The notes under the pieces are model-generated. The model made no database searches. It was not told the DNA's origin and saw only the letters and a program-made list of their open reading frames with translations. Position numbers and translations under genes: made by a program. A stretch of 32,000 nt of DNA from Telmatocola sphagniphila (GTDB lineage: Bacteria > Planctomycetota > Planctomycetia > Gemmatales > Gemmataceae), in contig NZ_CP074694.1 in the NCBI RefSeq assembly GCF_018398935.1, forward strand, positions 4,110,001 through 4,142,000, given 5' to 3'. Position 1 is the first letter of the stretch, and the number at the start of each line of letters is the position of its first letter. Positions 666 through 23,422 of the stretch are shown one piece after another.

Positions 666-3600
666 TCAAACGGCCGGGTGCGACGGTGTTCTCCTCCGTC
701 GCAACACCGGAACCAGGATCGCGGCCAGACCCACCAGGAATACCGGCTCGGGCACCGGTGTCGGCTGCCAAATCAGATCCATGGTGGAGGAACCATCCGA
801 ATTGTTGATGATGCTTGTCGTGATGGTGCCATAACTGCTGTATGAGATTGGGTTGTTATTGGTATCGATCATACCGTAGACAAACGGAGCGTTCGACCCG
901 GTTAGGATAATGCTATTCTGATCGACGAAATTGCCCTTGCTGTTGGTGATGACCCGCCAACTTTCGGACACGCCCCAGAAAGAATCGCCCCAGTTCGGCT
1001 GAGTCGTGCGAATCTGCATCGATGCACCCGGACGAATTATCGTATTACTGGTAGTAATGGTAATGGTGTCGAAACCGCTGCCTGGCTTGGTATTTCCCTG
1101 AGTATTTGAATTCCCGGGGGGCACGTCGATGACTGCTCCGCCGCCAAGGTCCAAGCCATTGGTGATGGTAATAATTCCAGGAGAATCGCCTGGCTTCAAA
1201 ATGCCGCCCGACTGCACCGAGAGAGTGGAAATCGTCCCGTTGCCGTTGACATAACCACCCGATTGAATTGTCACCACTTTGGAAACCTGGCTTGTCGGGT
1301 CGGGCAGCGAGAGTTGCGAAGAATTCGTAACGATCAAATTCCCGGAACCTGTAAAATTTGCCCCGCCGCTGACAGTCAGAGTGGAATTAACTGTTGTGGT
1401 GCCTGTTACGCTTACCGTTCCATTGAGAAGATTCGTGGAACTATTCACCGTGAGCGTCGATCCCAAGGTGATGGTGCCGCTGGTGCTGACGGTGCCGCCG
1501 TTGAAGTAGCCGGGGTTATTGGAAGAGAGAGTTCCATAATTTTGATAATTGCCGCTGGTCGAAAATGTTCCGCCGACGTTGATATTCCCATAATTGATGA
1601 GTGTGCCGGTAGCCGAGTTAGTGAGATCGCCGGGTACTGCTAACGTCGAATTAGTACCTACCGTGAGCGAACCGTTGTTCAGGAACGTGCCAACGGTCGT
1701 AAAACTTTTGCCGTTGATGACCTGAAAGTTGCCGTTGTTGGTGGCCAGATTATTGATGGCATTAAAAGTCGCCCCTGTACCGCTTAATATGACGGTGGTA
1801 CTGGAGGCCAGAGTAGTGATCGATTTCGAGCCAAAATTGATGGTACCATTTGAATTATTGGTGTCTCCCACCGACCAGGTACCGCCGGTCAACGTACCGC
1901 CCGAGAAATTGATGATGTTGCTGTTACTGAGATCGAGCGTTCCATTCTGAACGTCCACCGTTCCGGTGTTATTGAAATTCAAACCTGCGGTGAAGGTCCT
2001 ACCCCCTTGAAGGGACAATGTACCGTTATTGGTGCTCAAGCCATTGATAGCTGTGAAGGTCGCATTGGGGCCACCCAGGATCACGGTAGTATTGGCCGCG
2101 ATGGTGGTAATGAGATTGGAGCCAAAGCTCAGAGTGGAATTATCGTTGACTTGCCAGATTCCGCCCGTGAGGGTATTCGCCGCATAGTTGGTGATATTCA
2201 CCGTGCTGAGATCGAGGCTCCCTGTTACGGTCAGCGTTCCATTATTGGTAAATGTGATATTGGTGATCGTCCCGCCGGTGTAATTGAGTGTACCGTTGTT
2301 GATTAAGGTACCCGTCCCGGTGATGGATCCGGTGGAGAGATTGATTGTCGAAGTTGCGGCCGATGTAAAAACGGAACCACTGGGAAGGCTAAGTGTTCCG
2401 CCACTGATAGCAAATTGACCTGCAACTGGATTAGTCGTTCCTGCCGTGGCGACTGCAATTCCACCTTCATTCAAGGTCAGGTTACTTACAACGATCCCGG
2501 GATTTAAAGTTGTCGTGCCGTTAGCAACAGTGAATCCATAGGCGCCATTGAGATTATCGGAGGTAGTGAGATCGAGATCAATTCCATTGATGGAGAGATT
2601 GCCTACGATTGGACCTCGGTTGACGAGAGTCGGAGCACCCGTACCATTTACACCTACGAAAACTTGCTGATAGTAACCCGTCGTTATTGTGTATCCATTG
2701 GCATTTATAACACTACCTGCGTCCTGCAAGTTTATATTTGCGTAGCTAAAAGCGGATACATCCAGATTTGCTCCAAGTGTGAGAGTGCTACCCGATGCAA
2801 CGCTCACACCGGCTTGGCCTGCAATATTCCCAGCTTGCGTCGTTGTTGCTGAAGCTCCATTCGTCAGACTTAATCCGCTAACTACAACACCGGTCCCTAA
2901 AACGGTCGTAGCGAGGTTGCCACTCAAGCTCAATCCATAACCGCCATTAAGTTGATCCGCGGGACTTAAAGTAAAGCTTTGATTTGCAATCGAGAGATTT
3001 CCTAGGATCGGGCCTCTACTCTGTAATGTAGGATTACCGATACCATTTGTGCCAATGAAGAATTGCTGATAATACCCCGTCTTAATACTATATCCATTCG
3101 CATTTAATACACTGCCCGCATCTTGCAAGTTGACGTTGGCATAATTGAAGGCGGAAAGATCTAAATTTGCACCCAAATTAAGCGTACTTCCCGATGTGAT
3201 ATTAACGCCAACCTGCCCCGCAATATTCCCTGTCTGCGTTGTGGTCGCAGTTGCGCCGTTAGACAAATTAAGTCCGCTGATGACAATTCCAGTACCTAAA
3301 ACTGTTGTGGCGGCAACTCCGCTGAGACTCAAACCATAAGGCCCAGTAATTTGATCGGCTGTGGTCAACGTAATGCTTTGATTTGCTACTGACAAACTGC
3401 CAATAATAGGACCGCGATGAAGGATAGTTGGATTACCGGTACCGGTCAATCCGATGTTTACACTACCATAAGGCCCAGTAGTGATTGTATGGAACTGACA
3501 ATCCAAAACGCTTCCACTATCAGTCAGATTAACACTTCCCGCGTTCAAATTGGTCAGATTTAGGTCTGCTCCCAAAGTAAGAGAACTGCCTGTTGATATT

Positions 3601-5657
3601 GAGACACCATTGGTAATATTTCCAATCTGTGAAGTAGTTGCGGTCGCACCGTTACTCAAATAGAGACTGGACACCACAACTCCAGGAACCAAGGCTGTCG
3701 ATCCATTACTCAGCGAAAATCCAGAAGCTCCATTCAACTGATCTGAGGCAGTCAAAGTAATATTCTGATTCGCTACCGACAAACCCCCAATTATCGGACC
3801 ACGATTCAACAACGTCGGATTTCCAGATCCGGTTACACCGATACTGAGTGTCCCATTCGTGCCCGTGTTGATCGTGTAACCATTCGCATTCAACACACTT
3901 CCCGAATCCTGCAAATACACATTCTGGCCTGTACCCGCCGACAAATCCAGATTCGCTCCCAAGGTCAAAGTACTGCCACTAGTAATAATTACGCTACCTG
4001 TTATATTCCCCGTCTGAGTCGTAGTCGCTGAAGCAGAGTTGTTTAACGTTAAACTACTTATCACCACACCCGAACCCAACGTCGTCGAACCGTTACTCAA
4101 CGTCAAACCGTTAGCTCCGGTGATCTGATCCGCCGCAGTCAAAGTAATATTCTGATTCGATACCGACAAATTCCCAATAATCGGACCCCGATTTTGAATT
4201 GTTGGCATTCCAGAGCCGGAGGTGCCGATATTTACTCCACCAAAGAAGCCGGTTGTGATCGAATATCCATTGGCATTCAACACACTGGCGTTGTCTTGTA
4301 GATTTACGAAGCCAAATCCAGTACTATTCGCAGACACATCAAGATTCGCTCCTAGGGTTAACGTACTTCCAGTCGCTATTGTTATAGACCCGGTGATATT
4401 CCCCGTCTGAGTCGTAGTAGCCTTTGCACTATTGCTCAACGAAAGAGTACTCACCACTACCCCAGTTCCCAAGGTCGTCGTACCGTTACTTAAACTAAAC
4501 CCGCTTGAACCTGTGATCTGATCTGAAGAAGTTAATGTGAAATCTTGATTGGCAACCGACAAACTGCCGATGATCGGCCCCCGATTCAACAACGTCGGAT
4601 TGCCCGAACCATTAACACCGATGTTCAAGACACCGAATTGACCAACATTGATCGTGTGACCATTCGCATTCAAGGTGCTACCTGAATCTTGCAAATTCAC
4701 ACTGTACCCATTGTTCGCCGATAAATCCAAATTCGCACCCAACGTTAAGGTGCTTCCGTTTGCCACAGTCACGGTTCCGGTAATATTCCCAGTTTGCGTT
4801 GTGGTTGCATTCGAACCGTAAAGTGTTAAACTGCTAACTACCGATCCAGCCACAAGAGTGGAGGAACCATTGGTCAGAGTAAATCCATTGGCTCCTGTTA
4901 AATTGTCTGATGAAATGAGGTTGAAAGTCTGATTCGAAACCGACAGGTTACCTATGATTGGTCCTCGATTCTGCAATGTCGGATTTCCTGAACCCGAATC
5001 GCCGATACTCAACACTCCGTATTGGCCGGTATTAATCGTGTGACCATTGGCATTCAAAACGCTGCCGGCATCTGTCAGATAAATGCTTCCCCCATTGGCC
5101 GACAGATCGAGATTAGCACCCAATGTCAGTGTGCTGCCAGTGCTCACATAAATGCTGCTCGGAGCGTTCGCGGAAGTAATGTTATTTACCGAAGCGGTTG
5201 TCAGACTCGCCCCAGCAGCCAGGGCAATCGAGTTCACACTATCATTGGCATTCATCACGAGTGTATTGGACCCGTTCATATTTAACGTGCCCAATACCAG
5301 ATAGCCAGTCGTTCGGGTGATCGCTCCGTTACCACCGTTACCGATCGTTAGCGATCCTGCCGTGAGGGTATAGGCACCGAGATTCAGGATACCACTCGCA
5401 CTCGCTCCGTCGCCCAAGGTCACATCATTCGCATATTGAGCCTGGAGCAACGCCACGGTCGCGCTATTGGCACCACCCCCCGTGCTACCAATGTAGACGC
5501 TATCATTGACCCCCGGAATTCCACTCGGCGTCCAGGTGCCAGCCGTGCTCCAGTTTCCGTTCCCTGTCGCATAGTAAGTTGTCTGAGCTTTCAAATCGGA
5601 GTTTGAATAAAGCGCTGCAAGAACAGCCGCTAAAAGCCAGCGTCGGCGGATACGCAT
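666..5657 (-). CDS. Giant secreted beta-helical repeat protein (1663 aa) with C-terminal PEP-CTERM sorting signal
   Basis: Uninterrupted 4992-nt ORF. N-terminal signal peptide MRIRRRWLLAAVLAALYSNSDLKAQ. Gly/Thr/Asn/Ser-rich beta-strand repeats throughout, with an N-terminal GNGNWSTAGTWTPSGIPGVNDSVYIG motif like autotransporter-associated beta-strand proteins. C-terminus PVPEPVFLVGLAAILVPVLRRRR is a PEP motif, a hydrophobic helix and an Arg cluster. Confidence 0.9.
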   Translation of the reverse strand: MRIRRRWLLAAVLAALYSNSDLKAQTTYYATGNGNWSTAGTWTPSGIPGVNDSVYIGSTGGGANSATVALLQAQYANDVTLGDGASASGILNLGAYTLTAGSLTIGNGGNGAITRTTGYLVLGTLNMNGSNTLVMNANDSVNSIALAAGASLTTASVNNITSANAPSSIYVSTGSTLTLGANLDLSANGGSIYLTDAGSVLNANGHTINTGQYGVLSIGDSGSGNPTLQNRGPIIGNLSVSNQTFNLISSDNLTGANGFTLTNGSSTLVAGSVVSSLTLYGSNATTTQTGNITGTVTVANGSTLTLGANLDLSANNGYSVNLQDSGSTLNANGHTINVGQFGVLNIGVNGSGNPTLLNRGPIIGSLSVANQDFTLTSSDQITGSSGFSLSNGTTTLGTGVVVSTLSLSNSAKATTTQTGNITGSITIATGSTLTLGANLDVSANSTGFGFVNLQDNASVLNANGYSITTGFFGGVNIGTSGSGMPTIQNRGPIIGNLSVSNQNITLTAADQITGANGLTLSNGSTTLGSGVVISSLTLNNSASATTTQTGNITGSVIITSGSTLTLGANLDLSAGTGQNVYLQDSGSVLNANGYTINTGTNGTLSIGVTGSGNPTLLNRGPIIGGLSVANQNITLTASDQLNGASGFSLSNGSTALVPGVVVSSLYLSNGATATTSQIGNITNGVSISTGSSLTLGADLNLTNLNAGSVNLTDSGSVLDCQFHTITTGPYGSVNIGLTGTGNPTILHRGPIIGSLSVANQSITLTTADQITGPYGLSLSGVAATTVLGTGIVISGLNLSNGATATTTQTGNIAGQVGVNITSGSTLNLGANLDLSAFNYANVNLQDAGSVLNANGYSIKTGYYQQFFIGTNGIGNPTLQSRGPILGNLSIANQSFTLSPADQLNGGYGLSLSGNLATTVLGTGVVVSGLSLTNGASATTTQAGNIAGQAGVSVASGSTLTLGANLDVSAFSYANINLQDAGSVINANGYTITTGYYQQVFVGVNGTGAPTLVNRGPIVGNLSINGIDLDLTTSDNLNGAYGFTVANGTTTLNPGIVVSNLTLNEGGIAVATAGTTNPVAGQFAISGGTLSLPSGSVFTSAATSTINLSTGSITGTGTLINNGTLNYTGGTITNITFTNNGTLTVTGSLDLSTVNITNYAANTLTGGIWQVNDNSTLSFGSNLITTIAANTTVILGGPNATFTAINGLSTNNGTLSLQGGRTFTAGLNFNNTGTVDVQNGTLDLSNSNIINFSGGTLTGGTWSVGDTNNSNGTINFGSKSITTLASSTTVILSGTGATFNAINNLATNNGNFQVINGKSFTTVGTFLNNGSLTVGTNSTLAVPGDLTNSATGTLINYGNINVGGTFSTSGNYQNYGTLSSNNPGYFNGGTVSTSGTITLGSTLTVNSSTNLLNGTVSVTGTTTVNSTLTVSGGANFTGSGNLIVTNSSQLSLPDPTSQVSKVVTIQSGGYVNGNGTISTLSVQSGGILKPGDSPGIITITNGLDLGGGAVIDVPPGNSNTQGNTKPGSGFDTITITTSNTIIRPGASMQIRTTQPNWGDSFWGVSESWRVITNSKGNFVDQNSIILTGSNAPFVYGMIDTNNNPISYSSYGTITTSIINNSDGSSTMDLIWQPTPVPEPVFLVGLAAILVPVLRRRRTPSHPAV
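669..764 (-). other. PEP-CTERM sorting domain coding segment (last 32 codons of the giant protein)
   Basis: Translation PTPVPEPVFLVGLAAILVPVLRRRRTPSHPAV. It has the canonical order VPEP, TM helix, RRRR, plus an unusual 7-residue tail after the Arg cluster. Confidence 0.8.
679..703. terminator. GC-rich hairpin at a convergent gene junction (candidate bidirectional terminator, embedded in the last codons of the giant gene)
   Basis: tgcgacgg (679-686) pairs with ccgtcgca (696-703) across a 9-nt loop, 16 nt after the amidase stop. An alternative stem is cggtgtt/aacaccg (684-690/703-709). There is no U-tract on either strand. Confidence 0.3.
1668..2240 (-). repeat. Second repeat type: two copies of an about 90-codon module in the C-terminal third of the giant gene
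   Basis: LTGGIWQVNDNSTLSFGSNLITTIAANTTVILGGPNATFTAINGLSTNNGTLSLQGGRTFT aligns with LTGGTWSVGDTNNSNGTINFGSKSITTLASSTTVILSGTGATFNAINNLATNNGNFQVINGKSFT (residues about 1140-1330). Confidence 0.75.
2406..5138 (-). repeat. Seven in-frame tandem coding repeats of about 127-133 codons (about 380-400 bp each) inside the giant gene
   Basis: Repeat anchors GSTLTLGANLD occur at residues 174, 301, 430, 561, 690, 823 and 956. Each unit repeats LQD(S/A)GSVLNANG(Y/H)TI.TG, GSGNPTL.NRGPIIG.LSVANQ..TLT..DQ(I/L)(T/N)G and ATTTQTGNI(T/A)G. DNA-level similarity is visible, e.g. cgattcaacaacgtcggatt near 3796 and again near 4574. Confidence 0.9.
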
Positions 5658-12642: not shown

Positions 12643-14187
12643 TTACAGCTCGTGTTCCGATCCCAGGTTATACTTGGGTCGACTCTCACCCCATTCGAAA
12701 GTCACTTTCCGGCCGGCCGATTCATTTTGAGATCGCCAGCTATTCAGAAGCTCAATACAAGCATGATCGATGAAACTGACGTTTTGCAGATCGACTTGCA
12801 ACGAAGTGGTTTGCAAGGGAAGATTTTCGAGTGTGGCCGCGAGTTTGGGCAGGGAAAGGAAGGTAGCGGCTCCGTCGAGAATGATTCGAAATTCATTTCC
12901 TTCCATGAGAGTTTTCTCAACGCGCAGGCTCGCGAACTGGTGAAGCAGATGCAGCATCGACAGCACCAGCCCCAGGATAACCCCGACCAGAAGATCCGAG
13001 AAGACGATTGTTAAGGCAGTAACGAAATAGATGACCACCTGAGCCCGGCCAAAAATTCGCAATTCCCAGATCTGGTCGAGATCCACCAGTTTGAAACCGG
13101 TTACTACGAGCACCGCCGCCAGCGAACATTTGGGAATTAGGTTCAACAAATTGGGAAAGCAAACCGCTAGCCCCAGTAGCCAGACACCGTGAAAAATCGC
13201 CGAACATCGGGTACGCGCTCCGGCCTGGACATTTGCGGCGCTGCGAACGATCACCCCGGTCATCGGGAGGGCTCCCAGAAATCCGCAGATCGAATTCCCA
13301 ATTCCCTGCGCCGCTAATTCCTTGTTGTAATTGGTCCGTGGCCCGGAATGCATCTTGTCCACAGCGCCGGCGCAAAGCAGCGTCTCCGCGCTGGCTATCA
13401 AAGCTACGGTCAGTGCTGAAATCCAAGTCACTTTCTGGTAAAGGAAAGGGAGCGAGGCGGAATCGGGCAGGATCACCGCTTTGAAGAGGTTCTGCGGAAC
13501 TTCGATTTTTTGCACCTTCGTCGCGAAGGGAAGTAAGTTAGCCAGCAGAGTTCCAACAATTAACGCCGCCAGGGGAGCGGGTAAAAATTGCAATTTCCCG
13601 GGGGCCAGGCTTTTCCAGGCGAACAACGCGACTATGGTCGCCATACCAATAATGGCCGCGGCGGTATGGCTGTTTTCCGAGTCAAACGAAAAGGCTTTCT
13701 GAAACGACTCCGGCAACATCAGCAGATTGTCCAGTCCGGTCGATTTGGCTTTCACATCGAACATGGCATGAATCTGGCCCAGAACGATGAGTGTCCCGAT
13801 TCCCGCCAGCATGCCGTGAATGACGGCGGGGGAGACGGCCCGAAACCAGCGCCCCCAACTAGCGAAGGCCGCCAGGATCTGAATGAAACCTGCAAGAATG
13901 ATGATAACGCTCAGAGCGGCCGGGCCCAGATCTTTATTCAAGACGACACCGACAACGACCGTGGTCAGACCGGCGGCGGGCCCGGAAACCTGGAGTGGAC
14001 TACCGGAAAAGCAGCCGACGATGATGCCGCCGACTATTCCGGTGATCAAACCGGCAGCCGGCGGCATTTCACAGGCTAAAGCCACTCCCAGGCACAGTGG
14101 CAACGCCACCAAAAAGACGACCACCGATGCCGGCAGGTCACTCTTGAAGGCAAGAACCGGGGGAGAGATTTGGTTTTGCGAGTCCAT
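12643..14187 (-). CDS. SulP-family anion transporter with C-terminal STAS domain (bicarbonate/sulfate type)
   Basis: N-terminal SDLPASVVVFLVALPLCLGVALA, many TM segments, GIGNSICGFLGALPMTGVIVRSAANVQAGARTR. C-terminal STAS-like segment FLSLPKLAATLENL...VSFIDHACIELL. Confidence 0.9.
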   Translation of the reverse strand: MDSQNQISPPVLAFKSDLPASVVVFLVALPLCLGVALACEMPPAAGLITGIVGGIIVGCFSGSPLQVSGPAAGLTTVVVGVVLNKDLGPAALSVIIILAGFIQILAAFASWGRWFRAVSPAVIHGMLAGIGTLIVLGQIHAMFDVKAKSTGLDNLLMLPESFQKAFSFDSENSHTAAAIIGMATIVALFAWKSLAPGKLQFLPAPLAALIVGTLLANLLPFATKVQKIEVPQNLFKAVILPDSASLPFLYQKVTWISALTVALIASAETLLCAGAVDKMHSGPRTNYNKELAAQGIGNSICGFLGALPMTGVIVRSAANVQAGARTRCSAIFHGVWLLGLAVCFPNLLNLIPKCSLAAVLVVTGFKLVDLDQIWELRIFGRAQVVIYFVTALTIVFSDLLVGVILGLVLSMLHLLHQFASLRVEKTLMEGNEFRIILDGAATFLSLPKLAATLENLPLQTTSLQVDLQNVSFIDHACIELLNSWRSQNESAGRKVTFEWGESRPKYNLGSEHEL

Positions 14188-14236
14188 TCAATCCCTTTTT
14201 AAATTGATCCGGAACGTGCGAGTCGTAACTCTCGGA

Positions 14237-14968
14237 TCATGAGATTGATTCTACGGTTTCCAAATCGGGCAGGATTAAATCCAATTGATTATTTGCACCC
14301 AATATCGACGTCGCGACTCGCGATTGCTCCAGTGGCAGAAATCGATCCAGATGGGGTTCGTAGGCCTGAATCTCCCCCGTCTCAATTTCGTAAACCCAGC
14401 CGTGAATATTCAGGATTTCCCGTCGCAATGCCTCCTGAACGCTGTCGTGGGACCGGAGATTTTCCAATTGCGCGAGGACATTCAGATCCACGGCCTGCCT
14501 CCAGAGGTTGGGATCCTCCGGATTCTGGTGCAGCGCTTCGATGCGGGTCCGCGCGGAGGTTCCCGCGCGGTCGAGCCAATTTTTAATCGCCGGCATCGAA
14601 TCGATCGTTTGGGGATGCAACAGACCGTGCACGGCCCCACACTTCGTATGTCCGCAAATGACGATATCGCGGATATTCAAGACGTTGATGGCATAGTCTA
14701 TCGCCGCCGACTCCGCACCCGGCTCGGATTCGTGTTTCGCGGGAATGAGGTTGCCCATGTTGCGAACCACGAAGATTTCACCCGGTTCGGTACGCGTGAT
14801 AATATCGGGCTGAATGCGAGAATCCGAACAGGTAATCAGCATCACCGTGGGCGTTTGACCCTTGCTGAGCTTCCGAAACAATTCTTCCTTCTGGTACCGG
14901 CGATTTTTTTTGAACGACAGAATACCGCGCAGAACATTTTCCATGACTTCACTCTCTACGAATTCCAA
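14237..14968 (-). CDS. Beta-class carbonic anhydrase
   Basis: Zinc ligand motifs ITCSDSR and VICGHTKCGAV, plus VVRNMGNL. It lies directly upstream (49-bp gap) of the SulP gene on the same strand. Confidence 0.9.
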   Translation of the reverse strand: MEFVESEVMENVLRGILSFKKNRRYQKEELFRKLSKGQTPTVMLITCSDSRIQPDIITRTEPGEIFVVRNMGNLIPAKHESEPGAESAAIDYAINVLNIRDIVICGHTKCGAVHGLLHPQTIDSMPAIKNWLDRAGTSARTRIEALHQNPEDPNLWRQAVDLNVLAQLENLRSHDSVQEALRREILNIHGWVYEIETGEIQAYEPHLDRFLPLEQSRVATSILGANNQLDLILPDLETVESIS

Positions 14969-17491: not shown

Positions 17492-17505
17492 GCCGTTATT
17501 CTTTT
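17486..17505 (+). terminator. Small AU-rich hairpin plus T-run overlapping the ABC-F stop codon (candidate intrinsic terminator)
   Basis: gaataa (17486-17491, contains the TAA stop), gccg loop, ttattc (17496-17501), followed by tttt (17502-17505). The stem is only 6 bp and AT-rich. Confidence 0.3.
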
Positions 17506-18775
17506 AGGCCCATTGAAAGATCTTCGGCAGGGTCTTCTCCTCGGAGACCATTAGAACGGCGCGATTTCCATCGGTGAAGTAGGGATCGCCCGTTAAATTG
17601 TGACGGGGATTCTCCCGCGTGCAAGCCCCGACTCCGGGCAGGTAGCCGCCTCCCAATAAACGACCCGATTCGAACAAATCTTCCATCACATAATCCCGGG
17701 CTTCATCGACATCCGAATCGATGCGATGGGTCGTTAAATTCCAGGTTTTCCAGGTGAAGCGGACTCCGATATCCCGGCTGATCTGCCCCACCCAAACCGG
17801 CTGACCCTGAAAAAGCCAGGAAGTGCTCCAAAGTCGCAAATGTATTCGCTCGTTGATCGAATCTCGCACCCTTTGCAGTGCGAAATCCTGGGGTCGGGAG
17901 AACAAATAAAGAGCACTCACCGGACTGTAGCGATACTCCGCACCGGTGAGAAATGACTTGAACGTTCGCCAGCAGGAACCGAGGGTGATGATTTCCGTTT
18001 GATCCCAGCGCGGCGCAAAGACACCGATCAGAGTAGCGAACTGACCGATCACCGCCAGATTCACCGGGTCGCCGGTTCGTCCCCCTAAAGCATTGGTCGT
18101 CGTGGCGGGTAAACCGCGCAATTTATGCAGTAGCGTCGCGAGATCGAGGTCCTGCTTTTCCTCAGACGCTGCGGTCGGGGCCAGCGTCAGCTGATGATCG
18201 ACTTTCGGTCCCACCAGATCGACGGAAAAGCGATATTCTTTGACATCCATATTCATCACGAGAGCGACATCGACCACCTTGGTCCCGAAATCTCGTGGTG
18301 CAAAAACGATTCCTTCCGAGGTCGTTCCCGGGGCGATATTTTTCAGCGGAAAACTGAGCTGCTGGAAGCAGGCGTTCATCTTCTCGTTCGCTCGGCGCAC
18401 CGCATAAAGCTTGAACGGCAGAGCCAGTATGACCAAGGGAAGTAAAAACCAACCGGCAAAGCCGAAGGCCAGGAGCCGTTTGAGTATGGAGAAGTGACAG
18501 ACCCCGGCAGCCTCCCGCGCGGTGAAATAGTCCCGTGCGATCTTGGTCATCAACAGACGGGTGCCATTCTCCGATTTATTTTTCACCCGGACCCAGATCG
18601 CTTGCAGGCCGCGATTAGCGAGAGGTACGCCGAGTATCTGCTTGGCCTCTAGGGAGGTCAGAATCGCAATGCTGATTTCGGCATGTTCATCGGATTGATT
18701 TTGGATTCGCGACAGGTAAGGTTGTTCGCTCGGCTGGGGAGTGTAATTCAAGCGGAATAGCGAGATCATTCGCAA
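17504..18775 (-). CDS. LssY-like C-terminal domain membrane protein
   Basis: Central TM pair LLAFGFAGWFLLPLVILALPFKLY. The C-terminal half, DPVNLAVIG...YRYSPVSALYLFSRPQDFALQR...ERIHLRLW...GQPVWVGQISRDIG...THRIDSDVDEARDYVMEDL, follows the conserved LssY_C pattern as I remember it. Confidence 0.65.
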   Translation of the reverse strand: MRMISLFRLNYTPQPSEQPYLSRIQNQSDEHAEISIAILTSLEAKQILGVPLANRGLQAIWVRVKNKSENGTRLLMTKIARDYFTAREAAGVCHFSILKRLLAFGFAGWFLLPLVILALPFKLYAVRRANEKMNACFQQLSFPLKNIAPGTTSEGIVFAPRDFGTKVVDVALVMNMDVKEYRFSVDLVGPKVDHQLTLAPTAASEEKQDLDLATLLHKLRGLPATTTNALGGRTGDPVNLAVIGQFATLIGVFAPRWDQTEIITLGSCWRTFKSFLTGAEYRYSPVSALYLFSRPQDFALQRVRDSINERIHLRLWSTSWLFQGQPVWVGQISRDIGVRFTWKTWNLTTHRIDSDVDEARDYVMEDLFESGRLLGGGYLPGVGACTRENPRHNLTGDPYFTDGNRAVLMVSEEKTLPKIFQWA

Positions 18776-18852
18776 TACTCAATAATCGGATGGGATGGAT
18801 CTTTTTTAGGTTACCGATCCCCACCGATTTGTATCGAAGAAATCGGGAAGGA

Positions 18853-19437
18853 TCAGGGAACTGCCCAGTAGAAAACCGCGATCACGCTTCCCAGACCCAG
18901 GAGCATGGCGACTGTCCCCCATTTGCCGCGGGACTTCAGAGAAGACCAGAGCACCAAGCCGGTGGTGCAGATGATCACCAACAAAATGCAGACGATGTCG
19001 ATCACCCATCCCCAGACCGAACCGGCCGATTTTCCCTTGTGCAAATCGGTAATCAACCCGGCCCAGCCTCGACTTTCGAAAGTGATTTGCGTTTCACCCG
19101 TTTCCCGATTGATTTCGGCGACAGTGCGTTCGCTGGGCCGGATGAATTCGACTTCAATGGAATTCTCATCGTCCCGGAAAGTGTTCACGAAACCGGCGAT
19201 ACCAAAAACGCGCCGCAAGTTTTCGGAAACGATAAACTTATCGACCGAGTGCAGGGTGGCCGCATCCAGTTTCCCTTCCATAGTTCGAACGCGCGGCTCC
19301 GAGGGCAGAAACCAGTCTTCATGATTGAGCATGAAGCCGGTCGCGGCGAAAAAGAGGATCGTCACCAGCCCAAAGAGGGTCAAGTAGACGTGCATCAGCC
19401 GTGAAACTTTCAGTAAACGACGATAAGCAGGAGTCAT
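18853..19437 (-). CDS. PepSY-associated TM helix family protein (short, 194 aa)
   Basis: N-terminal RLMHVYLTLFGLVTILFFAATGFMLNHEDW and later ITDLHKGKSAGSVWGWVIDIVCILLVIICTTGLVLW are the two signature helix motifs of PepSY_TM proteins. The start codon overlaps the upstream stop (ATGA at 19434-19437). Confidence 0.7.
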   Translation of the reverse strand: MTPAYRRLLKVSRLMHVYLTLFGLVTILFFAATGFMLNHEDWFLPSEPRVRTMEGKLDAATLHSVDKFIVSENLRRVFGIAGFVNTFRDDENSIEVEFIRPSERTVAEINRETGETQITFESRGWAGLITDLHKGKSAGSVWGWVIDIVCILLVIICTTGLVLWSSLKSRGKWGTVAMLLGLGSVIAVFYWAVP

Positions 19438-20969
19438 GATGTCTTCTTAGGTCCATACTCCACACTGGTGTCGCCCGTCTCGTCGTTTTTCTCCAGGGAG
19501 GCGGAGAACTTTTCCGCCCGACATTCCAATTTGGTCGTCTGCCGGAGGTGCTTGCCATGCTCGCGATGAACTTCGATCTTCAACTGATAGGTGCCCTGAC
19601 CCTGCTTCTTACCCTTATCATCTTTGCCGTCCCACACCAGATCGTATTTACCCGGCCCGCGCGTTGCACGAGTCACCGCTTTAATCAAATCCTTATCGTC
19701 TTTACCGATCTTCCACCAATCGGTGAGATCCTTCAGATACTTCGGAGCATTGCCCCACACCGCTAGCGTTCGAATTGCTTTGCCTTCTTCCGTTTCGATC
19801 CAGACGGCGACATAAGGCCGACGATATTTCTTGGCCCCTTCGATCTTGGGGATTTCCAGATTTATGGAAACCTGGTAACCCTCGGGCCAAGCTTCCGATT
19901 TGGGTTTGGTTTTCGAGTCGTCGGATTTTTTCTTGTCATCGTCCGACAGAATCGGCTGCAATTCCAGGCCGCTGCTGGTGAATACTTCTCCGGAGGCATT
20001 CACCAGCAGACATTCCACACCCGAAATCGACTCGATGAGCCGAAGTCCCTCTTCCACACCCAGTACGCAGAGGGTGGTAGCCAGGAGGTTGGCGGTGGTA
20101 CTATCCCGGGCGGTAACCGTAGCCGAGCACACCGATTCGGCCGACTGGCCCGTGCGCGGATCGATCAGGTGAGAGTAACGCCGCGAGTCGATCACGAAAT
20201 AACGCTGATAGCCGCCGCTGGTGGCAACAGCGGAATTATTCAACCGCACCGCCGCTAGTGGAATCGCATTTTCCTCGGGCGTTTTGGGATTCTGAATGCC
20301 AATCGGCCAGGATCGGCCCCAACCGAACATGTCGCCACCCAGATTTACTAAACCGCTGGCGATGTTTGGGAAATTGGATTTGATTACCTCGCCCACCCGC
20401 TGCACGATGTAACCTTTGGCGGCCGCATTCAGGTCGAGAGTATGGGAAGTCGTTCGAGTTACCAGACCACTCGCCGAATCGATGTTCCAGGCGGGACTTC
20501 TCATCACACGGACCAAGGAATGGAGTGGCTCGGGTTCGGGTAGACGGCCCTCGTTTTCCGCGGTCTTCCAAATCGCTCGCAAAACATCCACTTGGGCATT
20601 CAATGCCCAACCAGTGGCCGGTTGCCAATTTTCATAAAGTCGGAGTACGGTCAGCAGGTCGGCCGAAACGGCCATCGCTGATTCGGTCCGGTTCAAGCGT
20701 GACAGTTCGCTTTCGGGGTCGTGCAGACTGAAGACTTTTCGGAGTCGATCGATTTCGCGCAAAGCGAGGCTTTCGGCCTCTTCCGCGATCTCGCAAGAAT
20801 TTGTCTGGATTATCAAATCGAAGGAAGTACCAAGGATATGGTCATGATGGAAGGCGAATTCCTCGGCAGGGATTTCATTTTCGCGGCCTGACACCCAACC
20901 GGGCAACAGACTGCTGGCGAGACCAGCCGCGCCGGCTTGCATCAAGCCGCGCCGAGTAATCTCCTGCAT
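19434..20969 (-). CDS. apbE: Fusion protein: Tat-signal FAD:protein FMN transferase (ApbE) plus C-terminal DUF2271 domain
   Basis: Twin-arginine leader MQEITRRGLMQAGAAGLASSLL. ApbE motifs LDLNAAAKGY, LVNLGGDM and YSHLIDPRTGQSAESV..ATVTA.DSTTANLLATTL (residues about 35-340). Low-complexity linker DDDKKKSDDSKTKPKSE. DUF2271-like module YRRPYVAVWIETEEGKAIRTLAVWGN..KYLKDLTDWW...AVTRATRGPGKYDLVWDGKDDKGK..GQGTYQLKIEVHREHG. Confidence 0.8.
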   Translation of the reverse strand: MQEITRRGLMQAGAAGLASSLLPGWVSGRENEIPAEEFAFHHDHILGTSFDLIIQTNSCEIAEEAESLALREIDRLRKVFSLHDPESELSRLNRTESAMAVSADLLTVLRLYENWQPATGWALNAQVDVLRAIWKTAENEGRLPEPEPLHSLVRVMRSPAWNIDSASGLVTRTTSHTLDLNAAAKGYIVQRVGEVIKSNFPNIASGLVNLGGDMFGWGRSWPIGIQNPKTPEENAIPLAAVRLNNSAVATSGGYQRYFVIDSRRYSHLIDPRTGQSAESVCSATVTARDSTTANLLATTLCVLGVEEGLRLIESISGVECLLVNASGEVFTSSGLELQPILSDDDKKKSDDSKTKPKSEAWPEGYQVSINLEIPKIEGAKKYRRPYVAVWIETEEGKAIRTLAVWGNAPKYLKDLTDWWKIGKDDKDLIKAVTRATRGPGKYDLVWDGKDDKGKKQGQGTYQLKIEVHREHGKHLRQTTKLECRAEKFSASLEKNDETGDTSVEYGPKKTS

Positions 20970-21361
20970 GACATTTCTCCCAAGTAAAGCTCAGATAGGA
21001 AATTCGAGTCGTAGCCAGTTTGGATTCCCGATTATCCTACGATCCCAAGTAACCATTTTTTTTTAAATCCTGCCCCGGGAGAGTGGGAGCAGGCCGATTT
21101 TTCCCCAAAACAGGAATTCGAAATCCGCAGCATCTTCGAATGCTGGCTATGCGAACGGTGTTCCAGGATCATACACTCCATTATAAATTAAATCTTTATG
21201 AGAACGTCGGATTACGAAAGGGCTCGTCCATTAGCCACAGTGCCTCCGAGTTTTGAGACGTGCGTTGCCAATTACCCTAAAATAGGTTCACTCCGAGAGA
21301 GAGGACCAGCCGTTCTGGTTGAATCGGAATGCCTCAGACTTATAGTGATTAGCGATTCTGT

Positions 21362-23422
21362 ATGACGGATGCTCTTCAGGCTGTTTTTGAACAGGCGGTA
21401 ATGGCTCACCGCAACGGTCGGCTGGATCTGGCCGACCAGCTTTATCGTCAGGTGCTGTCGGAAATTCCCGATCACGCCCCCAGTCTGAGCAACCTCGGCT
21501 CAATTTTCGTGAATCGAGGCCAGCTTCAAGACGCGATTCAAACTTATCAACATGCCATCAAGGCCGATCCGAATCGACCGGATGGCTATTACAATCTCGC
21601 CAATCTGGTGCGAAAACTTGGGAGATTGTCGGAGGCCGAGGGGCTATATCGGCGGTCTCTGGTGGCCGACTCGGAGTTTGCCCGTTCCTACCATAACCTC
21701 GGCCTGGTTCTGGGTCAGATGGGTCGATGGAATGAAGCGATACCCTGCTATGAAAATGCTCTGCGGCTCGATTCGCAATTTGTGGAAGTGCACAATCTGT
21801 TAGGTCAGGCTCTGCTGCAGGCGGGCAAATTCGATGCGGCGATTTCCCGGTTTCAGCGTTATACGCGCTTGCAGCCTAACGATCCCCGCGGTTTTCATAA
21901 CCTTGCGCTGGCGCTCGCCCAGCGCAATATGCTGGAACCGGCCAAGCAGGCCATTGAAGCGGCTCTGAAACTCAAGCCGAATTATGCGGAAGCCTTCAAC
22001 GCCCGGGCCATTTTACTCTGGCAACAGGGAAAATGTCTGGAAGCCATCGGCGATTGGCGACAGGCAATCACGCTACAGCCAAACAATCCTGAATTCTTAG
22101 CCAACTTAAGTTCGGTAGCCGAGGAAGCAGGCGATCTCGATCATGCCGTGGGGTCTCTGGAAAAATCCCTGGAACACTTCCCGCATAACCCGGCCATGCA
22201 TAGTTCCCTTATTCGCTTACTGAACTCCGTGGCCATGCCTCCCGAAGAGCTTTTTCAGGAACACTTGAAATGGGCGGCCCGGTTTGCCAATCCGATTCAC
22301 CCGACGGTCAATCCGAAACCGACCGACTCTCAGGCCGAACGAATTCTGAATATCGGCTATGTTCTCGGTGAAGTTTCGCTGGCGGAAGTGCGTGCATTTT
22401 TTGAGCCCTTGTTCCGGCAGCATAAGCGGGACCAGGTGAAAGTGATTCTTCTATCGAACACCCGAACCGAACCGGTAATAGCCGCACTAAGAAAGTCTTG
22501 CGATGCCCTGCATAGTATCGTCGGGCTGAACGACGCCGAAGCGGAACATCTGATTCAAAATGAGAAGATCGACATCCTGGTCGATCTGAGCGGCCATAAT
22601 CCGGGGAATCGTCTCGGCCTCTTCGCTCTGAAAACGGTTCCCGTACAGGCTTCGCTCTTCGGCTATCCCTTGTCGACCGGAATGAAGGCGATCGACTATC
22701 GAATCTCCGAATCTTATGCGGATCCACCGGGAAGTACCGAGAAACTGCATTCGGAAAGAGTCTGGCGACTGCCTCAGGTCTCCTGGGCCTATCAACCGCC
22801 AGAGCCCTTACCAAAACTGAGTTCCCCTCCGTTCGTTAAGAACGGCTATATCACCTTTGGGGTGATGCAGACCCCGCGGCGAGTGCTGCCCGGAATGATG
22901 GATGTCTGGGCCTCAATTCTGAAGGAAGAACCGACGGCACGACTCCGCATGGTGCTGGGAAAAAACGCATTCGCGAAGGAACGCTACGTTCAAATTTTCA
23001 CCAAATTTGAAATCGATCCCGCCCGCATCGACTTTCTGCCGAGACTGGAAGAAAAGGACTACTGGGAGTTCTTCAATAGCATCGACATCTCACTCGATAC
23101 GTTTCCGGCCAACGGACGATTGACGACGGCAGACGCCTTACTCATGGGTGTTCCTGTAGTGACCCTGTCGGGTCGAACGGCCGTCTCCCGCTTGGGCCTC
23201 AGCTTACTTCGACTGGTGGATCTGAACGATCTGGTGACTTGGAAGCCGGAGGATTACAAGGTAATTGCGGTGCGGTTGGCTCGCGATGCGTCGCGGTTGA
23301 AAATACTCAGGGATGTGCTTCGGGGGAAACTGCAAAGCTCGGCCGCCTGCAACTGGGAACAATTCGTGCGCGATCTGGAAACGGCTTATCGCGGGATGTG
23401 GCTCCGAGCAATTACGAACTGA
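21362..23422 (+). CDS. TPR-repeat protein with C-terminal O-GlcNAc-transferase-like (SPINDLY / GT41-type) domain
   Basis: About 8 TPR units in residues 1-290 (A..YQ.AI..DPN....Y.NLA periodicity). The C-terminal half carries IDILVDLSGHNPGNRLGLFALKTVPVQASLFGYPLSTGMKAIDYRISESYADPPG and DISLDTFPANGRLTTADALLMGVPVVTL, typical of bacterial SPINDLY-family OGT homologues. Confidence 0.85.
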   Translation: MTDALQAVFEQAVMAHRNGRLDLADQLYRQVLSEIPDHAPSLSNLGSIFVNRGQLQDAIQTYQHAIKADPNRPDGYYNLANLVRKLGRLSEAEGLYRRSLVADSEFARSYHNLGLVLGQMGRWNEAIPCYENALRLDSQFVEVHNLLGQALLQAGKFDAAISRFQRYTRLQPNDPRGFHNLALALAQRNMLEPAKQAIEAALKLKPNYAEAFNARAILLWQQGKCLEAIGDWRQAITLQPNNPEFLANLSSVAEEAGDLDHAVGSLEKSLEHFPHNPAMHSSLIRLLNSVAMPPEELFQEHLKWAARFANPIHPTVNPKPTDSQAERILNIGYVLGEVSLAEVRAFFEPLFRQHKRDQVKVILLSNTRTEPVIAALRKSCDALHSIVGLNDAEAEHLIQNEKIDILVDLSGHNPGNRLGLFALKTVPVQASLFGYPLSTGMKAIDYRISESYADPPGSTEKLHSERVWRLPQVSWAYQPPEPLPKLSSPPFVKNGYITFGVMQTPRRVLPGMMDVWASILKEEPTARLRMVLGKNAFAKERYVQIFTKFEIDPARIDFLPRLEEKDYWEFFNSIDISLDTFPANGRLTTADALLMGVPVVTLSGRTAVSRLGLSLLRLVDLNDLVTWKPEDYKVIAVRLARDASRLKILRDVLRGKLQSSAACNWEQFVRDLETAYRGMWLRAITN

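Follow-up and report, generated by a model that had tools for sequence, protein, structure and literature searches.

A fused ApbE-DUF2271 gene and its PepSY-like partner in Telmatocola sphagniphila: a candidate two-gene unit for extracytoplasmic flavin-based electron transfer

Introduction

The PepSY-like system has been defined as a gene cluster in which a membrane protein of family PF03929 or PF16357 is found with the FAD:protein FMN transferase ApbE (FAD, flavin adenine dinucleotide; FMN, flavin mononucleotide) and the domain DUF2271, often together with DUF4198, and a role in iron reduction has been proposed for it (PMC8238504; Méheust et al., eLife 2021). DUF4198, present in 1500 of 3220 clusters, is accessory rather than defining, and DUF2271 has been shown experimentally to be a substrate of its cognate ApbE, flavinylated on the Thr of a [S/T]GA[S/T] motif whose final Thr/Ser is the acceptor. 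The same study already stated that single genes encode both ApbE and DUF2271, as in RUL87804.1, and did not analyse this fused subfamily further. Here we describe a locus of the fused type from Telmatocola sphagniphila, located in a 32,000-nucleotide stretch of contig NZ_CP074694.1 (assembly GCF_018398935.1, positions 4,110,001 to 4,142,000), which is called the window below and whose first letter is position 1. In the window, a gene for an ApbE-DUF2271 fusion is followed on the same strand by a gene for a PepSY-like membrane protein and then by a gene for an LssY_C-domain protein.

Three further groups of proteins are useful for comparison. FoxB of Pseudomonas aeruginosa (PDB 7ABW) is a PepSY-like membrane protein with two hemes (PMC11334425). 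Both FoxB and Vibrio cholerae VciB act as reductases of ferric iron or siderophores, Fur represses the PepSY-like clusters of Shewanella and Caulobacter, and flavinylated proteins serve many redox functions (PMC8238504). The stand-alone FMN transferases of known structure include V. cholerae ApbE (6nxi), Treponema pallidum Ftp (4ifu), Listeria monocytogenes FmnB (7esa) and TM1553 (1vrm). In the trypanosomatid fumarate reductases, an N-terminal ApbE domain and its flavinylated target share one polypeptide as in the present fusion, implying self-flavinylation, although these proteins are eukaryotic and intracellular, carry another substrate domain and stem from a fusion event unrelated to this one (PMC12052999).

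The window locus is a new member, about 55% identical, of the known ApbE-DUF2271/PepSY-like type. It has the families of that type (PF02424, PF10029 and PF16357/PF03929), the extracytoplasmic location, the fused form seen in RUL87804.1 and the same proposed logic, in which electrons pass from a membrane cytochrome to flavinylated DUF2271 and on to a periplasmic acceptor. It differs from the typical system, with its separate apbE and DUF2271 genes and frequent DUF4198, in consisting of two genes only, in the acceptor motif (TRAT) and in an Asn at the place of an ApbE active-site Asp. An original prediction, made by a model from the sequence alone, held this architecture to be undescribed. That claim fails, because single ApbE-DUF2271 genes and the PepSY-like system were both covered before (PMC8238504); a fusion of ApbE to its substrate is also on record (PMC12052999), and the architecture is widespread across phyla.

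Results

Domain architecture of the fusion protein

Both domains of the 511-aa fusion protein were detected by Pfam above the family cut-offs, ApbE over residues 47-321 (E = 2e-60; 204.9 bits, cut-off 25.6) and DUF2271 over residues 367-497 (E = 4e-35; 121.1 bits, cut-off 27.3), the latter covering positions 2-133 of the 136-position profile. The AlphaFold2 (AF2) model of the fusion had a predicted local distance difference test score (pLDDT) of 88.6 and a predicted template modelling score (pTM) of 0.77. In a Foldseek search, the top match was 4xdt (E = 2e-22, TMt 0.79) and the top 39 matches were all ApbE, Ftp or FmnB structures; a comparison with PDB sequences returned TM1553, FmnB, T. pallidum Ftp and V. 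cholerae ApbE, with E-values from 4e-26 to 1e-16. The domain thus shares the fold of the stand-alone FMN transferases (Foldseek E of about 1e-22, TMt of about 0.8) at only 21-27% identity. The fusion is unlike these enzymes in its C-terminal substrate domain, in Asn294 and in having a Tat-type (twin-arginine) leader and not a lipoprotein signal.

The DUF2271 domain was modelled as an Ig-like β-sandwich, with weak Foldseek matches to the FlgD Ig-like fold. As a separate observation, three giant proteins of 1756-4065 aa (P0375, P0427 and P0461) matched the DUF2271-region query in 12-21 repeated stretches each, spanning approximately residues 59-121 of the 152-residue query, or residues 418-480 of the fusion. 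Because of these repeated matches, this part of DUF2271 resembles a widespread Ig-like (FlgD_ig-type) repeat. Between the two domains, residues 341-360 had pLDDT values of 60-65, and the consensus of homologues was not conserved there.

The leader of the fusion begins MQEITRRGLMQAGAAG, and direct inspection of the sequence confirmed its twin arginines, which are kept in the consensus of close homologues; residues 1-28 were disordered in the AF2 model (pLDDT < 50). Since most fused homologues have Sec-type signal peptides, the Tat-type leader is lineage-specific and Tat export is not intrinsic to the fused architecture. For the same reason we rejected the idea that cytoplasmic self-flavinylation before Tat export is the general reason for the fusion.

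The PepSY-like membrane partner

The fusion gene and the gene for the 194-aa membrane protein overlap by 4 bp, the sequence ATGA at 19434-19437 containing the stop of the former and the start of the latter. The membrane protein matched PepSY_TM_like_2 (Pfam E = 2e-30) and PepSY_TM (37.5 bits, cut-off 28.8). With both PepSY models above their cut-offs and the gene adjoining the fusion, the window falls within the PepSY-like system as defined (PMC8238504). The AF2 model of this protein (pLDDT 93.7) contains transmembrane (TM) helices at residues 3-38, 140-165 and 171-192 and a periplasmic PepSY-type β-sheet domain at residues 49-122. In the homologue alignment, His16 and His133 were invariant and His39 nearly so, and all three lie at the ends of TM helices in the model. 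These positions would fit bis-His heme ligation as in FoxB, and heme binding is predicted from the His residues together with the PepSY_TM match. As there are only three His residues per chain, the protein is probably dimeric.

The protein is like FoxB and VciB in its PepSY_TM signature, in the His residues at TM ends, in the periplasmic PepSY-type domain and in the proposed role of passing electrons across the membrane to ferric substrates. FoxB, about twice as large, has four TM helices and four His residues for its two hemes, whereas the window protein has three of each and, unlike FoxB, would need to oligomerise.

The observations behind the original prediction hold. The three open reading frames (ORFs), the domain calls, the Tat leader, the Lys/Asp-rich linker and the ATGA overlap were confirmed by the ORF list, Pfam and direct checks of the sequence, the Pfam profile search detecting ApbE, DUF2271, PepSY_TM and LssY_C alike.

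Conservation of the fusion and of the gene pair

Both domains were present in one chain in all 120 homologues listed by a database search (48-56% identity). A scan restricted to one genome per species gave 80 loci with full-length matches to the fusion (L001-L080). In Planctomycetota these include Gemmata, Singulisphaera, Isosphaera and Fimbriiglobus; many others belong to Bacteroidota (Hymenobacter, Pedobacter, Mucilaginibacter, Aquirufa, Sediminibacterium and others), and the remainder include Verrucomicrobiota, one metagenome-assembled genome (MAG) of Acidobacteriota, Acinetobacter and other Moraxellaceae, and Deinococcus. Because the continuous two-domain architecture recurs in the 120 homologues listed and at the 80 loci, the fused ORF is not an assembly artefact, and the continuous reading frame originally proposed stands. 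An exhaustive search with the DUF2271 domain only returned 1297 representative clusters, and by a manual tally of lengths about 60% of the best 150 of these were of fusion length with the domain at the C-terminus.

To find partners, the PepSY-like protein of the window was compared with all ORFs of the 80 loci. A homologue was found at 78 of them, and in all 78 it lies on the same strand immediately 3' of the fusion; in the two closest relatives of the fusion the partner again has 194 aa and its gene overlaps that of the fusion by 4 bp. Clustering of flanking genes revealed no further family in more than about 8 of the 80 loci. The module is therefore a self-contained gene pair. These data support the earlier view that the fusion and the PepSY-type protein together form a module for flavin-based electron transfer outside the cytoplasm.

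The original prediction had also pointed to the absence of DUF4198. In agreement with this, DUF4198 was not found among the nine other window genes scanned, which include the three genes nearest to the cluster on its upstream and on its downstream side, and it was likewise not seen next to the closest relatives of the fusion. Fused loci normally lack DUF4198, and the window is no exception. A classical cluster on a Sphingomonas plasmid comprises genes for a TonB receptor, a dioxygenase, PepSY_TM, DUF2271, DUF4198 and ApbE. In Deinococcus sp. KNUC1210, plasmid NZ_CP092192.1 carries the split order apbE, DUF2271, PepSY_TM (L088, locus 2732-5045), and another Deinococcus genome carries the fused version (L075). 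In a rough neighbour-joining (NJ) tree, the ApbE sequences of these two loci were sisters, suggesting a recent fusion or fission.

Proposed electron relay and its acceptor

Taken together, these results suggest that two genes of the window form a PepSY-like unit for extracytoplasmic flavin electron transfer, of the fused type, to which the LssY_C gene is unrelated; we put the probability of this reading, with the steps proposed here, at about 0.72. The 511-aa fusion would first be exported, in this lineage via Tat as judged from the leader. Its ApbE domain would then use FAD to join FMN by a phosphoester bond to Thr436, as family knowledge and conservation suggest. This residue would lie in an exposed loop of DUF2271, a domain held to the enzyme by some 25 residues of flexible linker, and because of this tether each ApbE domain may mainly service its own or a neighbouring substrate domain. 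The translationally coupled PepSY-like protein, probably as a dimer, would bind b-type heme via His16, His39 and His133 and supply the FMN on DUF2271 with electrons taken from a donor in the cytoplasm or the membrane. In the last and weakest step, the reduced flavin would hand its electrons to an acceptor in the periplasm; Fe(III) or ferric chelates, reduced in the service of iron uptake, are the most plausible candidates.

Gene neighbourhoods are consistent with an iron-related acceptor. At six Bacteroidota loci (e.g., L066, 2044-2748), a gene for a VIT1-family ferrous iron transporter lies directly upstream of the fusion gene and in the same orientation; no link to iron in the fused subfamily is clearer. 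TonB-dependent receptors are encoded near about 13 fusion loci, and the Sphingomonas classical cluster includes siderophore receptors.

Several observations weigh against the proposed relay or parts of it. The PepSY-like protein was not linked to FoxB by a significant match in either Foldseek or a profile search. The ApbE domain has Asn294 in place of an Asp that is essential in T. pallidum Ftp, so that its activity is not to be taken for granted, and the acceptor motif departs from the canonical form in having neither its Gly nor its Asp at -6. Neither an iron transporter nor a TonB receptor was found among the window genes scanned at the locus, and a search with the proteobacterial Fur-box consensus gave no match above shuffled sequences in the window or in 12 related upstream regions. 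Moreover, iron-related neighbours occur at a minority of fusion loci.

In an alternative explanation, the gene pair is a general supply of periplasmic reductant unrelated to iron, which might serve a different reductase of the periplasm, an enzyme of repair or an electron acceptor outside the cell. The lack of iron genes and Fur boxes at the window locus and in Planctomycete relatives, the self-contained pair travelling with variable flanks and the diversity of redox functions of flavinylated proteins would all suit this explanation. However, VIT1 and the TonB-dependent receptors are the only recurrent neighbours that are functionally suggestive, and both the reductase function of FoxB and VciB and the Fur-repressed clusters of Shewanella and Caulobacter argue for iron. 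We therefore regard a general reductant supply as possible, though not probable.

Active site and acceptor motif of the fused subfamily

The catalytic and FAD-binding residues of the ApbE domain are retained at all positions but one. In the alignment of the fusion family, S251 and H267 were invariant, K185, G211-G212-D213 and R256 were strictly kept, and T298 was kept in 79 of 81 fused sequences. S251 and H267 correspond to the catalytic Ser-His pair of V. cholerae ApbE, S241 and H257, and T298 to the Thr metal ligand T288 of T. pallidum Ftp; K185 and R256 are also shared with the stand-alone enzymes. The exception is position 294, at which the Asn of the fusion aligns unambiguously with the metal-binding 'triad' Asp of these enzymes (T. 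pallidum D284, V. cholerae D285, FmnB D301). Only three active-site residues are conserved among the characterised ApbEs, this Asp being one of them (PMC12052999), and the D284A mutant of T. pallidum Ftp has lost both enzymatic activities (PMC4436053).

Asn294 did not vary among 121 close homologues. Of 81 fused proteins, 57 have Gly at this position, 16 Asn and 8 Asp, so that 73 have Asn or Gly, whereas Asp was kept in all six unfused ApbEs compared, including the split version of Deinococcus. In the NJ tree, the Asn and Gly forms fell mainly into two separate derived clades, with one Asn sequence (L013) grouping with the Asp-retaining forms; the latter, from Acinetobacter, Deinococcus (fused and unfused) and three Planctomycete MAGs, lay outside both clades. 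A change from Asp to Asn or from Asp to Gly takes one nucleotide, and a change from Asn to Gly takes two. The clades and these codon steps suggest that the Asp was lost at least twice independently after the fusion.

The acceptor residue itself is conserved. A435, T436, R437, P439 and G440 were invariant in 121 sequences, and every fused homologue that could be aligned has Thr or Ser as the acceptor. The Thr436 loop had the lowest pLDDT of the DUF2271 domain in the AF2 model and is presumably exposed. The surrounding motif has diverged from the published form: the site in the fusion reads K-A-V-T-R-A-T, with Arg/Lys for the canonical Gly and Lys for Asp at -6, both changes being conserved in the Planctomycete clade. 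Fusions of Planctomycetota have TRAT, most of those in Bacteroidota [T/S]-S-A-T and some T-G-A-T, and those of Acinetobacter A-K-P-S. Stand-alone DUF2271 proteins have SGAT in Sphingomonas and Cupriavidus, TSAT in Vibrio and TSPT in Deinococcus, and across loci L001-L091 the only general part of the motif was Ala/Pro-Thr/Ser-Arg...Gly. Since the stand-alone Vibrio and Deinococcus proteins also deviate, lacking the Gly, the deviation is not exclusive to fusions, which weakened our idea that it results from the fusion. In another flavinylation substrate, a protein with the motif Gly changed to Ala was still about 50% flavinylated (PMC12052999).

One explanation for these substitutions is that the fused ApbE is impaired or has been repurposed for flavin binding, as a scaffold or for docking, Thr436 then being flavinylated in trans by a separate canonical ApbE from another place in the genome, or not at all. 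The loss of so widely conserved a residue, the mutant phenotype of Ftp, the contrast between fused and unfused proteins at position 294 and the non-canonical motif all speak for it. However, the other catalytic and FAD-binding residues are retained, Asn can ligate Mg2+ via its carbonyl oxygen, and the retention of an inactive 300-residue domain across phyla seems unlikely; the invariant acceptor Thr/Ser and the A-T-R..P-G context argue for continued modification. We consider an impaired enzyme distinctly unlikely and prefer the view that the fused ApbE is probably still active, with a modified metal site and relaxed, single-turnover demands.

A further proposal is that the fusion itself changed the chemistry, the Asp having been replaced independently by Asn in Planctomycetota and Verrucomicrobiota and by Gly in Bacteroidota, while the motif drifted to TRAT, TSAT or AKPS. 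We advance this only tentatively and hold it somewhat doubtful. If this is true, one of two things would follow: a self-flavinylating domain that acts in cis for a single turnover and whose active site is modified or needs no metal, or a dead enzyme domain kept for another role.

The downstream LssY_C gene

The original prediction assigned the downstream slot of the module to the LssY-like protein, whose gene it placed 77 bp from the PepSY-like gene. The strand was correct, and the distance was not. The start of the LssY_C gene is most likely ATG 18769, since the resulting length of 421 aa equals that of P0121, an exact database copy of the protein, and is typical of homologues, and the gap from this start is 83 bp. 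The protein matched LssY_C over residues 223-404 (Pfam E = 2.5e-45).

A three-gene operon with the LssY_C protein as functional partner of the relay is very improbable: the two genes share a strand across a gap with no terminator-like site and no stable hairpin or structured RNA (z = -1.2), and their order is repeated on a metagenome contig, but LssY_C relatives were found at none of the 80 fusion loci. That contig, the only other occurrence of the window's gene order, is 1974 bp long, encodes 100% identical proteins and presumably comes from the same organism. Beside the two closest fusion homologues, convergent unrelated genes stand in the place of LssY_C. Three LssY_C orthologues at 70% identity have three unrelated neighbourhoods, and in the soil MAG BH11PLA2 the fusion and LssY_C homologues bear distant locus tags (_29260 and _25090). 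The identity to the nearest relative is also higher for LssY_C than for the fusion (70% vs. 56%), as expected for an independent gene. On these comparative data we rejected the LssY_C protein as a component of the module; of the proposed neighbourhood, the fusion-PepSY pair proved to be conserved and the LssY linkage did not. Local co-transcription with the pair is possible, though not conserved, and the gene is a lineage-specific neighbour for which a functional coupling is unsupported.

Homologues of the LssY_C protein are widespread in Planctomycetota, with 60% identity in Schlesneria and about 50% in Pirellulales and Phycisphaerales. The window protein has one hydrophobic segment at approximately residues 95-125. 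It had no match among the sequences of solved structures, and a literature search for LssY returned unrelated matches only.

Features of the locus and neighbouring genes

The coordinates of the locus are collected in Table 1. The promoter of the fusion operon presumably lies in the intergenic region upstream of the fusion, within which no regulatory element was recognised: on the minus strand there was no sigma-70-like site, and no Rfam family, riboswitch or other known RNA was detected. The divergent gene beyond it (21362-23422, plus strand) encodes a large protein of TPR repeats that ends in a glycosyltransferase domain of the GT41 (O-GlcNAc-transferase-like) type. Elsewhere in the window (12643-14968, minus strand), a gene for a SulP-family transporter with a STAS domain lies directly 3' of a gene for a β-class carbonic anhydrase on the same strand, a pairing that fits bicarbonate transport and interconversion.

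Table 1. Features of the ApbE-DUF2271/PepSY-like locus and adjacent sequences, in window positions
Feature	Position	Strand	Size, residues or sequence	Basis or remark
ApbE-DUF2271 fusion gene	19434..20969	minus	511 aa	ORF call; Pfam ApbE and DUF2271
PepSY_TM_like_2 membrane protein gene	18853..19437	minus	194 aa	Pfam; start overlaps fusion stop
LssY_C-domain protein gene	17504..18769	minus	421 aa from ATG 18769	Pfam; adjacent, outside conserved module
Twin-arginine (Tat-type) signal peptide	20886..20969	minus	residues 1-28, MQEITRRGLMQAGAAGLASSLLPGWVSG	sequence checked directly
ApbE (FAD:protein FMN transferase) domain	20007..20831	minus	residues 47-321	Pfam, PDB sequence matches, Foldseek
Asn294 codon of fusion	20088-20090	minus		site of usual metal-binding Asp in ApbE
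Flexible Lys/Asp-rich interdomain linker	19893..19946	minus	residues 342-359, SDDDKKKSDDSKTKPKSE	sequence checked; pLDDT
DUF2271 domain	19479..19871	minus	residues 367-497, Ig-like β-sandwich	Pfam
Predicted FMN acceptor Thr436 codon	19662-19664	minus	loop V-T-R-A-T436-R-G-P-G	conservation
Flavin-acceptor motif region	19647-19685		IKAVTRATRGPGK	
His codons of PepSY-like gene	His16 19390-19392; His39 19321-19323; His133 19039-19041	minus		presumed heme ligands
Upstream intergenic region	20970..21361	minus		shared with divergent TPR/GT41 gene; presumed promoter site

Discussion

As an ordinary member of a published system, this locus has its value mainly in a correct annotation, the unit consisting of two genes and not three. 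For the fused subfamily, the Asp substitution and the drift of the acceptor motif appear to be undescribed in the literature examined. They raise the question, for the flavinylation field, of how an ApbE without the Asp that is essential in T. pallidum Ftp serves an invariant acceptor Thr. The subfamily is in this respect a natural experiment in how the tethering of an enzyme to its substrate relaxes or rewires the constraints on catalysis and recognition, and it could give compact self-labelling flavin tags. In addition, the minimal two-gene version would be well suited to a search for the acceptor that DUF2271/PepSY-like systems use in the cell.

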